The position numbers were made by a program, and so were the translations under genes. A stretch of DNA of 39,812 nt from Bacilli bacterium. GTDB lineage: Bacteria > Bacillota_I > Bacilli_A > RF39 > UBA660. Shown here one piece after another: positions 9,513 through 13,578 of the stretch. The DNA is taken from the NCBI GenBank assembly GCA_035379765.1, contig DAOSVX010000001.1:1-39812 (forward strand), read 5' to 3'. Each line of letters starts with the position of its first letter. Position 1 is the stretch's first letter. The notes under the pieces are model-generated. The model made no database searches. It had not been told where the DNA came from and worked only from the letters and a program-made list of their open reading frames with translations.

Positions 9513-9549
9513 AAAGGATATTAAATAAAAATATCCTTTTTGTTTTTTT
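9512..9549. terminator. Bidirectional intrinsic terminator between rnj (+) and the DGR RT gene (-)
   Basis: A perfect 10-bp stem AAAAGGATAT / ATATCCTTTT (9512-9521 / 9531-9540) is followed by a T-run. Confidence 0.6.
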
Positions 9550-10597
9550 AAATTTTTTTGGTTATTATATCTTTTCTATCAATTTTCTTATACATTTTTT
9601 GTTTAAACAAAAAACTATTTGCATGCCCTGCATGAGCTACAAAACTATTCCATTCTAATAGCATTTTATGTTCATTTAATCTTTCTATTGAATTAAGTTT
9701 ATTCCACAATTTTATTTTCTTTTTTATTTGTTTCTTTGACCTAATTTTTAATAATTTATGGGTTTCATATATTATATAACCACAAAAATTAATTCCTAAT
9801 TTGTTTGGGTAATATTTGCTCTTTTTATTTAATTCTACTTTTAATCTTGTTTTTAAAAATTCTTCTATTATCCCCATTATCTTTTTTGCTTCTTCTTTAG
9901 ATTCTAGTAAAATAACAAAATCATCCATATACCTAACATAATATTTTATCTTTTGTTGTTCTTTTATATAATGATCTAAAACATCTAAATATATATTAGC
10001 AAAATACTGACTTGTGTAATTTCCAATTGGTATACCTTTATTTTCATCAGCAAATATAAATTTTTTTGTTAAAACCAATAATTTTTTGTCACTTATCATA
10101 TTTAACATAATATTTAATAAAATAGTTTTATCGATATTATGAAAAAAACCTTTTATATCGCATTTCAATATATAGTATTTATTGTATCTGCGTTTCATTT
10201 GTTGCATATATTTTTGAACTTTTGCAACTGCACTATGGGTTCCTCTATTGTCAATACAAGCAAATGTATCCGATATAAATCTTTGCATAACATAAGGCTT
10301 TATAAATTCATAAATGTACCATTGCTGAACTATTCTGTCCCTTAATGGTAAAGCTTTAATAACCCTTTCTTTCGGTTCATTTATAACAAATGTTTTGTAT
10401 TCTCCCATTTGATATATTCCCTTTTTTAATTGGTTAATTATATTCCATAAATTAGTTTCCAAATCTATACTAAAAATTAACACCTCCTTCTTTTTCGTTT
10501 TATTTTTTATTGACCTTTCGTAAGCTTGTAACATTTTTTCATACGTTAAATTTTTATAAAACAAGTTTTTTATTGTTTTAGACATGAATTTATCCAC
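9548..10597 (-). CDS. DGR-type reverse transcriptase
   Basis: 349 aa. It has the RT motifs LPLRDRIVQ, GIPIGNYTSQYFANIYL (the IGxxxSQ signature that distinguishes DGR RTs from group II intron QGxxxSP) and RYMDDFVIL (YxDD). There is no maturase or endonuclease extension. It overlaps the 3' end of avd by 28 nt. Confidence 0.9.
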   Translation of the reverse strand: MDKFMSKTIKNLFYKNLTYEKMLQAYERSIKNKTKKKEVLIFSIDLETNLWNIINQLKKGIYQMGEYKTFVINEPKERVIKALPLRDRIVQQWYIYEFIKPYVMQRFISDTFACIDNRGTHSAVAKVQKYMQQMKRRYNKYYILKCDIKGFFHNIDKTILLNIMLNMISDKKLLVLTKKFIFADENKGIPIGNYTSQYFANIYLDVLDHYIKEQQKIKYYVRYMDDFVILLESKEEAKKIMGIIEEFLKTRLKVELNKKSKYYPNKLGINFCGYIIYETHKLLKIRSKKQIKKKIKLWNKLNSIERLNEHKMLLEWNSFVAHAGHANSFLFKQKMYKKIDRKDIITKKI

Positions 10598-10926
10598 CCA
10601 CCTAGTAAGTTACATATATTCATTATTTTTTTACTCCATGCCGCATAGTTTTTAATATTAATATACTTCCTTTTTTTTGAAACTCTTATTAAAACTTTAA
10701 GCATTTTTAATGATACATCCAGCTCACTCAGTACTCTTATTCTGCTCTTCGTGTCTCTTGATTTTTGAGCTCTTATTATTAGTTTCATCCCATCATAAGT
10801 GTTATTTTTTATTTGCACACAAATGTTATTCTTTTCTATCTTCGGATACTTAACTAATATACTTTCAGTATAATATATTAACTCTAAATATTGCTTATAT
10901 ATAAGTAAATCTTCCAAATTATACAT
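10570..10926 (-). CDS. avd: Avd-like accessory variability determinant (four-helix-bundle / 23S rRNA IVS protein family)
   Basis: 118 aa, predicted all-helical and basic. Size, the YPKIEKNNICVQIKNN pattern and the position immediately upstream of, and overlapping, the RT all fit Avd. Confidence 0.75.
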   Translation of the reverse strand: MYNLEDLLIYKQYLELIYYTESILVKYPKIEKNNICVQIKNNTYDGMKLIIRAQKSRDTKSRIRVLSELDVSLKMLKVLIRVSKKRKYINIKNYAAWSKKIMNICNLLGGWINSCLKQ

Positions 10927-11287
10927 TAAGTACTTCTTTTAATTCTTTTAATAACTTTAACGCTTTTAAAGGTGTTGTGTTATCTATATCTAAATTTTTT
11001 ATTTTATTTAATAAATTTCTTTTTGCTTGTTCCACATCAATTTTATCTATTATTTCTACAACTAAATTTAAATTTTCAAATATATTCGTATATTTTTCAA
11101 TAGAATTAGTTGGAAACCCACATTTTACAACTTCGTCATTCAGTTTAGTTAATTTTAAGGTGGTTATTTTATTTATATTCTTGGCATCTTCATCCAAAAA
11201 TAAATAAAAATTCCCACATTTAAACAAATAGTATTTACTATTATCTATTTGTTTTAATTCTAAATATTTTTTATATAATTTACCCAT
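10919..11287 (-). CDS. Mini-MutS-like DGR accessory protein (MutS domain I plus the MutS C-terminal helix motif)
   Basis: 122 aa. Residues 5-38, YKKYLELKQIDNSKYYLFKCGNFYLFLDEDAKNI, align with E. coli MutS 14-47, [41 protein letters not shown]...CGFPTNSIEKY aligns with ISLTKRG...AGIPYHAVENY. The C-terminal NLDIDNTTPLKALKLLKELKEVL aligns with the MutS end [23 protein letters not shown]. The RBS AGAGGAG lies upstream, and the gene overlaps avd by 8 nt. Confidence 0.7.
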   Translation of the reverse strand: MGKLYKKYLELKQIDNSKYYLFKCGNFYLFLDEDAKNINKITTLKLTKLNDEVVKCGFPTNSIEKYTNIFENLNLVVEIIDKIDVEQAKRNLLNKIKNLDIDNTTPLKALKLLKELKEVLNV

Positions 11288-11515: not shown

Positions 11516-11648
11516 CAACACAAGACCGCGCCACGATATGTTGCTGTTCGCGTTCCCGTTCGTATTGTTGAGATTGAACCCACCGGCCCCTACACCGTTG
11601 TTATAGTTGCCTCCACGTATGAACCATGGATTAGTCGCATTGACAAAA
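11516..11648 (-). repeat. DGR template repeat (TR)
   Basis: This non-coding 133-bp copy of 11851-11983 has no indels. On the minus strand it holds 12 AAY codons in the VR reading frame. 15 of the 17 differences from VR are at TR adenines. Confidence 0.9.
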
Positions 11649-11730: not shown

Positions 11731-11760
11731 TACGAGCCCCAAAAAAGTGTGGGGCTCGTA
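11731..11760. other. GC-rich 10-bp perfect hairpin between VR and TR
   Basis: TACGAGCCCC-(10 nt)-GGGGCTCGTA. No U-tract follows immediately on either strand, so it is not a canonical intrinsic terminator. Confidence 0.5.
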
Positions 11761-11828: not shown

Positions 11829-11847
11829 TCTTAGGCTTCGCCTAAGA
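11829..11847 (-). promoter_or_regulatory. Hairpin/cruciform element immediately 3' of VR (candidate DGR target-recognition element)
   Basis: On the minus strand, TCTTAGGC-GAA-GCCTAAGA forms an 8-bp stem that includes the target TAG stop codon. It starts 4 nt after VR/TR homology ends and has no counterpart next to TR. Confidence 0.6.
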
Positions 11848-13578
11848 AGTCAACACAAGACCGCGCCACGATATGCTGCTGTTCGCGCGCCCGTGCGTAA
11901 TGTTGAGACTGAACCCACCGTCCCCCACACCGTCGCCATAGTAGCCTCCACGCAGGAACCATGGATTACGCGCAGTGACAAAATTATTCCAGTCTTTATA
12001 CCAGTAATTTGTCTCTCCTAAGGCTTCTCCTAGATTACTTGTATTACTCTGCCAACTTGTGGTTATATATAATTTATAATATTTGCTATTAGGATAATCT
12101 AGTCCGGTGGTATTACTTGTTATACCTGAATCACATCCTGTATATGTTGGATCTCCATATATTCCCTTATACCCACTGTGATATATGTTACATCTACCGG
12201 AATATAAATTAGATGATGCATCTGTATATACTCCCATTTGATATTCCCATGCTCCTCCACTCATATCAAATATGCCATATATATTCCCGGTTGTACTTTG
12301 GGGATATGAGCTTACTCCACTTCCATAAGCTATTTCACAACTGGATGTTGCTGCAGCATTTGCAGCACTTGCTCCACATCCGGTTGTATAGTTACTATTA
12401 TTGTTTATTCTTATCTCATCGTTTATTCCATATTCGGAATAACTTAAATATACTACTGCTCCCCAGTCTACATTCTTACTCATTCTACTCTCTGCACTTA
12501 TTCCATAAATTGAGTCTGTTCCAAATTTTAATGATGTTATAAATTCTGTCGATACATTTTGATTTCTTAATGATGCGACATTTGGTTTTATGGTTGGGCT
12601 TACATCTGTACAGTTAGCTTCACTTGGACTTGTTGCACATGTACTTCCTGCTAACGGTGTTGTTTCAAATTTTCCTACCCAGATTCCATTTAATTCTATT
12701 CCATTATATGTGAAAGCGGGATGAGTTAACTCTGTTCCATTAGTACTTCCTGTACTTTTGGTTGTATAGGCGTTTTCAAATGTTATACTTATACTTTGAG
12801 GACAATTCGCTGTACAAGTTGTATCATCACTATATGTTGCTGCTGTTCCATCTACATTAAATAAGGTATATCTATATCTTGGTATCCATACTAAATATGC
12901 TAAGATATCTGCTTCGGCTACTGTTACTCCATTATTTGTTTCATAGTATGTTCTCGTCTCAGTTCCACTTTCTTTTACTAATACTACATTAGCCCATTGT
13001 TTATTTTCATAGCTATACCAACTACTACTCGTTGGGCTTACTGTTGTTACTGTTCCATCATTTCCTATTGTTACAGCGATCATTCCCGTAGAAATTCTTG
13101 GGTAAGCTCCATTTAAGATACTTTCTTTATACACGCTATAACTTGCTATTAATCCTGAACAGCCATCAAACCCTGATGTTTCTGTTTGCAGTGTGGTATC
13201 TACTTCTACTCCTCCTAATGTACTTCCTGTTACTGAGTTCTTACCATTTGTATACCATATTACATTGGTATCTCCTATTAATACTGAGCCTTTATAACTA
13301 CTACTAAAGCTTTTATCGACATATCCTGCTGCTTCTAGATATTCGATACTATAGCAATAGCCACTTTCTGTACTTCTGGTTAAATCATTATTTAATAAAT
13401 CATCAGCATAAGCTGATTTAGCTGCTTTACCGATATTCTCGGCTTCTATCTCAAAAGCATTAGCTTTAGCATTATCCATCATTTTTAAGACACTTGGGAC
13501 TGCTAGAAGAACAAGAACTGCTAGTATGACTATAACTGCTAATAATTCTACTAATGTAAAACCCTGCTTTTTTTTCAT
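11842..13578 (-). CDS. DGR target protein: prepilin-type N-terminal cleavage/methylation domain plus a C-terminal FGE-sulfatase/C-type-lectin-like variable domain
   Basis: 578 aa. The N-terminus MKKKQG|FTLVELLAVIVILAVLV matches the class III (type IV pilin/pseudopilin) signal G|FTLxE. HPAF...GIWVGKFETT and IFDMSGGAWEY resemble FGE-like domain motifs (compare DMSGNVWEW). The VR lies at the extreme C-terminus. Composition is rich in S/T/G/Y/N, unlike the K/E/I-rich neighbouring proteins. Confidence 0.9.
   Translation of the reverse strand: MKKKQGFTLVELLAVIVILAVLVLLAVPSVLKMMDNAKANAFEIEAENIGKAAKSAYADDLLNNDLTRSTESGYCYSIEYLEAAGYVDKSFSSSYKGSVLIGDTNVIWYTNGKNSVTGSTLGGVEVDTTLQTETSGFDGCSGLIASYSVYKESILNGAYPRISTGMIAVTIGNDGTVTTVSPTSSSWYSYENKQWANVVLVKESGTETRTYYETNNGVTVAEADILAYLVWIPRYRYTLFNVDGTAATYSDDTTCTANCPQSISITFENAYTTKSTGSTNGTELTHPAFTYNGIELNGIWVGKFETTPLAGSTCATSPSEANCTDVSPTIKPNVASLRNQNVSTEFITSLKFGTDSIYGISAESRMSKNVDWGAVVYLSYSEYGINDEIRINNNSNYTTGCGASAANAAATSSCEIAYGSGVSSYPQSTTGNIYGIFDMSGGAWEYQMGVYTDASSNLYSGRCNIYHSGYKGIYGDPTYTGCDSGITSNTTGLDYPNSKYYKLYITTSWQSNTSNLGEALGETNYWYKDWNNFVTARNPWFLRGGYYGDGVGDGGFSLNITHGRANSSISWRGLVLTS
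11851..11983 (-). repeat. DGR variable repeat (VR), covering the last ~44 codons of the target gene
   Basis: See TR. It encodes FVTARNPWFLRGGYYGDGVGDGGFSLNITHGRANSSISWRGLVL, whereas the TR-encoded sequence is FVNATNPWFIRGGNYNNGVGAGGFNLNNTNGNANSNISWRGLVL. Confidence 0.9.

Follow-up and report, generated by a model that had tools for sequence, protein, structure and literature searches.

The stretch of DNA analysed here (the window; 39,812 nucleotides (nt) of a Bacilli bacterium, assembly GCA_035379765.1, contig DAOSVX010000001.1, positions 1 to 39,812) carries a diversity-generating retroelement (DGR) on its (-) strand, with the cassette order target gene and variable repeat (VR), template repeat (TR), msl, avd and reverse transcriptase (RT). 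The DGR is complete and chromosomal, and the genome is that of an uncultured, gut-type member of the Bacilli. The subject of this report is msl, the MutS-like (MSL) accessory gene of this DGR. Its small product, Msl, combines the mismatch-recognition domain of the DNA repair protein MutS with a tail that, judged from profile comparisons, derives from the extreme C terminus of the same protein. An earlier sequence-only reading of this DNA, made without database searches, had described the gene as a mini-MutS of this kind, and its claims are taken up below together with the results that bear on them.

Domain I and the mismatch-contact motif

The N-terminal part of Msl had been aligned with MutS domain I by eye, with a Pfam search and structure prediction proposed as checks, and both agree with that assignment. 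PF01624 (MutS_I) matches residues 5-91 of Msl at profile positions 4-94 of 113 (E=3.1e-11, 43.9 bits, gathering score 20.6). In NCBIfam, two MutS models are the sole strong matches, and TIGR01070 (mutS1) scores 42.9 bits on the whole protein against a cut-off of 641.7. When a profile of 27 family members (A2) was compared with the PDB sequence set, it matched E. coli MutS at residues 13-98 (E=2e-8), followed by the MutS proteins of Taq and Neisseria and by MSH6 and MSH3. The AlphaFold2 model built on the A2 alignment (mean predicted local distance difference test score (pLDDT) 88.3) has the alpha/beta topology of domain I, a short linker of lower confidence and two C-terminal helices (85-97 and 106-120). 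A Foldseek search of the PDB with this model returned MutS or MSH chains for 50 of the 50 best matches listed, the best being E. coli MutS (1ng9_B; E=1.4e-5, root mean square deviation 1.6 Å over 84 columns).

The connector, lever, clamp and ABC ATPase domains (MutS_II to MutS_V) had been described as missing, and the Pfam scan of the 122 residues indeed gives MutS_I alone. In the linkers of full-length MutS a beta-clamp-binding motif of the QLSFF type lies just upstream of the C-terminal hairpin; such a motif was considered for Msl and rejected, as it occurs in 0 of 182 Msl proteins.

The motif through which MutS contacts a mismatch, Phe-X-Glu, is altered in a consistent way. HMMER alignments place G-D-F-Y-E-L-F of E. 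coli MutS opposite G-N-F-Y-L-F-L of Msl, so that the stacking Phe is kept as F27 and Leu stands in place of Glu, as had been read by eye. The same pattern holds across the family: among 182 Msl relatives the Phe is present in all, and Glu is found in none, the position being occupied by an aliphatic residue in 174 (Ile 134, Leu 32, Val 8) and otherwise by Asn (4), Ser (2) or Tyr (1). F27, D34, K55 and F58 are invariant columns in the 182 proteins, and C56, G57 and P59 are nearly so.

The C-terminal tail

The sequence-only reading had further claimed that domain I is fused directly to the C-terminal oligomerisation motif of MutS. Compared with E. coli MutS alone, whether pairwise or with the family profile, the tail scores -1.3 to 2.9 bits, which is not significant, although HMMER places it at residues 825-851 of the 853 in that protein. 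The evidence was taken instead from library-wide and multi-species tests.

Searched alone against 18,950 NCBIfam models, the isolated 39-residue tail of msl has TIGR01070 as its sole match, at positions 808-839 of 840 (E=0.0012). The same search with ten family tails of 37-47 residues, each on its own, gave TIGR01070 and no other model for six, always within positions 807-840 of 840 and with E values from 0.0012 to 0.059. Five full-length MutS proteins (from Listeria, S. aureus, Vescimonas, Bacteroides finegoldii and Prevotella) were picked without regard to their tails from domain I tblastn matches in chromosome pieces filed in PLSDB. A hidden Markov model (HMM) of 41 positions, built from Msl tails only, scored highest within the last 20-33 residues of each of the five (13.9-22.6 bits, per-sequence E 3e-9 to 2e-6), compared with a maximum of 5.1 bits on 2000 shuffles of the same five sequences. 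The profile-profile comparison that had been proposed gave the same answer, with hhalign aligning the Msl tails (A4) to the five MutS C termini (A3) over 35 columns at a probability of 97.4% (E=1.2e-11). The C terminus of B. finegoldii MutS provides an example, the Msl sequence opposite it being IKNLDIDNTTPLKALKLLKELKEVLNV. On the strength of the NCBIfam, tail-HMM, shuffle and hhalign results, the tail is identified by sequence as a homologue of the conserved MutS C-terminal helix-loop-helix, and the claim of a direct fusion stands.

The tail HMM reaches at least 8 bits in 139 of 182 Msl proteins, most of the others being truncated, frameshifted or equipped with a divergent helix-loop-helix. 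In the alignment with E. coli MutS, itself weak, D835, P839 and R840 pair with D102, P106 and L107 of Msl; the three E. coli residues are located in the tetramer interface (PMC3783165). The column equivalent to R840 holds Ser, Lys, Ile or Leu in the Msl family, and a large subclade has S-V-S-E-A in place of T-P. The isolated C-terminal domain (CTD) of E. coli MutS is a tetramer, which the D835R substitution converts to a dimer, and in the whole protein the CTD stabilises the MutS dimer and is needed for mismatch repair (MMR) and anti-recombination (PMC1636413). According to the account of Calmann et al. 2005 given in that paper, mutation avoidance and anti-recombination are separated in mutS delta-800.

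The DGR cassette and its chromosomal setting

The open reading frame (ORF) singled out by the sequence-only reading is present as described (Table 1), with a good ribosome-binding site (AAGAGGAGAAAAAATG) ahead of its ATG. That msl is translationally coupled to avd and the RT had been claimed as well, and the overlaps are there to be read: ATGTATAA is common to the msl stop and the avd start, and the RT start in turn overlaps the end of avd. The isoelectric point (pI) of Msl is 8.94, the family mean being 7.7 +/- 1.5, and the protein is identical to a hypothetical protein from a 'Bacilli bacterium' metagenome-assembled genome (MAG).

Table 1. Positions of msl, its protein modules and the other parts of the DGR cassette in the window
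Feature	Position	Strand	Basis
msl, 122-aa mini-MutS (MutS-like DGR accessory protein)	10919..11287	(-)	ATG start, TAA stop; Pfam MutS_I
MutS domain I fold, Msl residues 1-83 (H3-14, E19-24, E27-31, H32-41, E54-59, H60-72, E77-80)	11039..11287	(-)	AlphaFold2, pLDDT mostly 86-96; Foldseek
Codons F27-Y28-L29, counterpart of the MutS Phe-X-Glu mismatch-contact motif	11201..11209	(-)	HMMER alignments to E. coli MutS GDFYELF
Helix (85-97), acidic loop (NLDIDNTT), helix (106-120); Msl residues 85-120, identified by sequence as homologous to the MutS C-terminal dimerisation/tetramerisation hairpin (E. coli 823-853)	10928..11035	(-)	Tail searches, AlphaFold2
avd (accessory variability determinant), 118 aa; start overlaps msl stop by 8 nt	10570..10926	(-)	Pfam bAvd E=1.3e-20
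DGR reverse transcriptase, 349 aa, IGNYTSQ and YMDD motifs; start overlaps avd end	9548..10597	(-)	Pfam RVT_1 E=1.3e-19; motifs read in translation
Template repeat (TR), 133 nt, 35 adenines	11516..11648	(-)	Repeat family D1, alignment
Variable repeat (VR), 3' end of target gene	11851..11983	(-)	Repeat family D1, alignment
7-bp hairpin CTTAGGC-GAA-GCCTAAG, a few bases after VR, spanning the target stop codon; DGR-type	11830..11846	(-)	Read from sequence
DGR target gene, 578 aa, prepilin-type N-terminal methylation signal, C-terminal region with VR	11842..13578	(-)	Pfam N_methyl E=5e-8; NCBIfam pilin models

The RT motif IGNYTSQ fits the DGR-type pattern [I/L]GxxxSQ, and avd lies alongside, its match to the NCBIfam model DivGenRetAVD (E=2.2e-20, 72.9 bits) being slightly short of the curated cut-off (80). 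Of the 133 repeat positions, 17 distinguish VR from TR; TR has an adenine at 15 of the 17 and another base at the other 2, and with so large a share of differences at TR adenines the DGR appears from its sequence to be active. Since the target carries a prepilin-type N-terminal cleavage and methylation signal, what the element diversifies seems, as far as sequence can tell, to be the tip of a type IV pilin-like protein in a gut bacterium of Gram-positive type. The signal is ComGC/GspG-like. The C-terminal region of the target has a weak match to the FGE-sulfatase/C-type-lectin-like fold (E=8.8e-4, 19.4 bits, below the gathering score of 23.3). Between VR and TR lies another hairpin, GAGCCCC-(10 nt)-GGGGCTC (window 11734-11757, (-) strand), which may terminate or process the target transcript before the TR RNA. 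There is no HRDC gene in the cassette, Pfam on its four proteins giving MutS_I, bAvd, RVT_1 and N_methyl/FGE-sulfatase only.

The cassette directly follows recA and rny, and its further neighbours are ordinary chromosomal genes (ftsY, ffh, RNase J, PBP1, EzrA and ClpB). In Listeria monocytogenes (locus L085, 1-6688), rny lies about 2 kb upstream of mutS-mutL. The proximity to rny in both Listeria and the window may be coincidence or a hint at the origin of the mutS fragment.

The Msl family and its gene order

Msl belongs to a sizeable family. There are 33 close homologues of 119-202 residues (32 of them 119-143), all 33 with PF01624, and a representative library of 1.84 billion proteins holds 363 cluster representatives at E<=1e-10, of which the best 150 are nearly all 110-145 residues long and cover the whole profile. 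Species-representative genomes contain 221 loci with an Msl relative, and the counts of gene order refer to the best 80 of these, almost all of them from MAGs of uncultured gut Bacilli, Clostridia or 'Tenericutes'.

The association with DGR RTs, which the sequence-only reading had suggested examining across genomes, is borne out: in 66 of the 80 loci the genes run msl-avd-RT on one strand, usually with the target and TR upstream. In three more the order is target-avd-RT-msl, one locus has msl-RT and one msl-avd without an RT, the RT lies elsewhere in the locus in three, the contig ends in one, and in five an intact msl has neither RT nor avd nearby. These five orphans (L006, L027, L037, L039 and L065) have conserved motifs and tail. 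In L027 msl sits between queH and rpsB, the site at which L035 and L079 have queH-target-avd-RT-msl-rpsB, and in L037 and L039 msl is found beside rny, behind an XRE-type gene. Orphan Msl may outlive its DGR or act in trans.

Several variants bear on the modular nature of the protein. P0157 (237 residues) has a full Avd in place of the MutS tail, connected to Msl domain I by a low-complexity linker; P0032 is an Msl relative that runs into an RT; and in P0065 (202 residues) an XRE-type helix-turn-helix is fused to the Msl N terminus. The cassettes of L081-L083 have two MutS_I proteins each. In L081 (6001-9832), msl1 (135 residues) lies directly before the RT, and the other strand has the order target, msl2, avd; the msl2 product (149 residues) matches MutS_I weakly, reads F-I-Y where MutS has Phe-X-Glu, and has a helical tail that lacks T-P.

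An unusual arrangement was seen in an uncultured Bacilli MAG (L007; CANQZD010000005.1, 1-4600), where a single VR at 140-278, upstream of msl-avd-RT, forms the end of the target ORF, holds 16 adenines and has a GC hairpin behind it. Next in line are 11 TR-like units repeated in tandem every 370 nt or so, with 27-35 adenines per unit; each of the 11 has a 3' flank of TR type and a conserved motif upstream, and the hypervariable columns differ among units. From its sequence this locus looks like a DGR with 11 alternative templates.

A phage origin of the family was considered and rejected: 50,697 phage records gave one weak match, and 2.9 million viral contigs gave one relative, which has no tail. 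That single viral relative (L092) follows a DGR-type RT and has the motif F-Y-I. For Msl of Bacteroides-type DGRs, tblastn of PLSDB and phage sequences gave chromosomal MutS and ArdC-like proteins with a C-terminal MutS_I, and no DGR Msl.

Msl and the published MSL class

The MSL class was named by Wu et al. 2018 (NAR 46:11, PMC5758913). In that survey MSL genes occur in 16 of 372 DGRs ('Architecture D'), leaving 356 of 372 without, and encode proteins of 112-283 residues with a pI of 7.2 +/- 1.7, always together with avd and never with HRDC; three DGR RTs have a C-terminal MutS_I extension. Reviews use the MSL name too. The 'MutS-like' accessory ORF that the sequence-only reading had mentioned is thus a documented class. 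The gene studied here resembles it in length (122 residues, inside the published range), in detectable MutS homology (PF01624, Foldseek), in its place in a DGR cassette with avd and without HRDC, in being clade-restricted and in near-neutral charge (pI 8.94 for msl, with the family mean as above). Since old GenBank scaffolds (Clostridium sp. CAG:914, Firmicutes bacterium CAG:582) are among the Msl loci, the family is likely to be represented among the 16 MSL of that survey. Msl is also listed for the Bacteroides DGRs Bfr, Bth and Bun in a recent preprint (bioRxiv 10.1101/2024.11.15.621889).

Where the present account differs is in the MutS C-terminal hairpin and the family-wide replacement of Glu, neither of which is mentioned in the published MSL accounts that were searched. 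In the literature searched, no functional test, C-terminal MutS motif or loss of Glu is described for MSL, and other papers could hold one. The gene class is already known, and its two-module anatomy appears not to have been described previously. As the class has already been catalogued, what is new is the anatomy and the hypothesis that it enables, rather than the existence of the gene.

Proposed function and its alternatives

The point of departure is the effect of host MMR on DGRs. In the preprint cited above, VR mutagenesis by the Bov DGR of Bacteroides, which has no Msl listed, rose 5-10 fold, all-or-nothing, once host mutS had been deleted (bioRxiv 10.1101/2024.11.15.621889). This lends plausibility to the functions that the sequence-only reading had suggested, namely that Msl might shield the cDNA:VR heteroduplex, or dock onto or poison host MutS. 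We put forward, tentatively and with a likelihood that we place a little below even, the proposal that Msl is an ATPase-less oligomeric mismatch binder that would shield the cDNA:VR heteroduplex from host MutS/MutL. The tail would assemble mismatch-binding domains into a dimer or tetramer, and the invariant Phe27 wedge would allow this assembly to sit on the mismatch-dense heteroduplex formed by adenine-mutagenised cDNA and VR. Because Msl is without an equivalent of Glu38, a connector, an ATPase domain and a clamp-binding motif, it should be unable to turn into a sliding clamp, to bring in MutL or to license excision. Its part would instead be that of a passive occupant competing with host MutS at the DGR intermediate, which would increase the number of retrohoming events that survive. 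The coupled translation of msl with avd and the RT, along with the Msl-Avd and RT-MutS_I fusions, suggests that Msl could be delivered to the intermediate within or beside the RT-Avd complex. Lebbink and colleagues reportedly found in 2006 that MutS requires Glu38 both to discriminate and to authorise repair. Losing the Glu need not prevent mismatch binding, as MutS E38A/Q/T mutants have been crystallised on a G.T mismatch (PDB 1wbb, 1wbd and 1wb9, among the Foldseek matches).

Several considerations weigh against the shielding proposal. The near-neutral pI of the family is atypical for a strong DNA binder, and domain I makes only part of the DNA contacts of MutS, which leaves it doubtful whether a protein of 122 residues would have useful affinity for mismatches; in the literature searched there are no binding, oligomerisation or genetic data for any Msl. 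The five orphan loci could mean action in trans or a role independent of the DGR. No full-length mutS or mutL lies in the window or in any of 84 loci, a search that covered these stretches of DNA, and some related lineages with reduced genomes lack it, mutS being present in 33% of genomes of RFN20. RF39 is reported to keep mutSL. The phage BPP-1 DGR did not need MutS, as cited in PMC5758913.

Two other functions deserve consideration. Msl might act as a poison or decoy of MutS, its hairpin pairing with the C-terminal hairpin of the host protein to cap the tetramerisation interface or form mixed oligomers, so that tetramer-dependent activities (efficient strand incision and the rejection of homeologous heteroduplexes) would be weakened, locally or globally, with domain I merely bringing the inhibitor to mismatches. 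The fit of the tail profile to real MutS C termini (14-23 bits) and the conserved loop residues (D102/D835, P106/P839) would suit such docking, as would the location of the counterparts of the latter, D835 and P839, in the tetramer interface (PMC3783165) and the reported critical part of the CTD in anti-recombination (PMC1636413). However, Avd replaces the tail in P0157 and the phage-contig relative L092 is tail-less, which argues for the tail as an exchangeable means of oligomerisation and against its being a MutS-docking motif that Msl cannot do without; the position of R840 varies, and T-P is replaced in a large subclade. Moreover, a general poison would turn the host into a mutator. We consider this explanation unlikely.

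We give about the same low standing to a positive role in retrohoming unrelated to MMR, in which Msl would be a subunit of the RT-Avd-TR RNA particle, its domain I wedge reading distorted DNA or RNA:DNA and aiding the targeting or stabilising of cDNA integration. The hairpin or cruciform after VR, the cDNA:target junction and the RNA:cDNA hybrid are candidate substrates, and a hairpin does lie directly after VR. The tight coupling of msl with avd and the RT, the Msl-Avd and RT-MutS_I fusions, and the L081-L083 cassettes, where msl and RT adjoin without avd between them and two MutS_I proteins are present, all agree with membership of such a particle. Yet 356 of 372 DGRs have no MSL (PMC5758913), and since most DGRs work without it, MSL is not a core integration factor; the sequence of Msl bears no sign of RNA binding, and a kept Phe wedge joined to a MutS oligomerisation module is most simply related to mismatches. 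Finally, msl could be a decaying fragment of a captured mutS with no present function, given that an internal deletion of mutS would produce just such an architecture and that a few orphan copies lack RT and avd. Conservation essentially excludes this: there are 363 cluster representatives, full length in almost all of the best 150, core residues are invariant at <=50% identity, gene order is kept in 66 of 80 genomes and the predicted fold is confident. A dead remnant is accordingly very improbable.

In a wider form of the shielding proposal, Msl may be a natural, element-encoded MMR evasion factor, a self-oligomerising, ATPase-less 'dead' MutS delivered with RT-Avd that masks the DGR heteroduplex only, or caps MutS tetramers there, and leaves the host no mutator; this fuller statement is possible, although we hold it with more doubt than confidence. 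The question is of some consequence, since host MutS removes most of the diversity that a DGR makes, again all-or-nothing (bioRxiv 10.1101/2024.11.15.621889), and engineered DGR and retron systems depend on artificial means of disabling MMR. MSL genes entered the catalogues in 2018, and in the literature searched no mechanism was proposed for them and no function tested. Their anatomy, in which exactly two MutS modules, for mismatch recognition and for oligomerisation, appear to remain and the repair-signalling parts, including the authorising Glu, to have been lost, turns a vague 'MutS-like' label into a specific and cheaply testable hypothesis. Were it true, Msl would be the first known retroelement protein dedicated to blocking MMR and a compact tool for DGR or retron editing.

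Comparison with known systems

Set beside bacterial MutS (MutS1, TIGR01070; E. coli MutS structures 1E3M, 3ZLJ and 2OK2), Msl is a deletion-style derivative that keeps only domain I and the C-terminal helix-loop-helix. The two proteins share the fold of domain I, the stacking Phe and the C-G-[VF]-P loop, and their sequences indicate that they also share the C-terminal helix-loop-helix with its acidic loop and T-P-x-x-A motif. They differ in that about 730 residues are gone from Msl (the connector, lever, clamp, ABC ATPase and beta-clamp motif) and that Glu38 has become Ile, Leu or Val, and Msl is, in consequence, predicted to be incapable of hydrolysing ATP, forming a sliding clamp or recruiting MutL.

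Another reuse of MutS domain I by a mobile element outside MMR is found in ArdC-like proteins of 818-820 residues from Bacteroidales and in P0155. In contrast to Msl, these have the full Phe-Tyr-Glu, no C-terminal hairpin and a very large size, and are not beside a DGR. Examples from Phocaeicola massiliensis (L090, 2934-5390) and a human gut 'Bacteriophage sp.' (L091, 1831-4293) combine an ArdC-like N-terminal part with a C-terminal MutS_I that has F-Y-E, and P0155 (2323 residues) holds five MutS_I stretches and an ArdC-like region.

A functional parallel may be the suppression of MMR in retron and DGR editing, by dominant-negative MutL E32K or by mutS deletion. The dominant-negative mMutL was used in an E. 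coli DGR system (bioRxiv 10.64898/2026.07.21.739853) and mutS deletion in PMC12875486. The purpose, the escape of a mismatched heteroduplex derived from ssDNA or cDNA from MMR, would by analogy be that of Msl too, which makes this 122-residue protein a candidate for local MMR suppression in genome editing. Whereas the engineered measures are artificial and global, suppression by Msl would be natural, element-encoded and possibly local.

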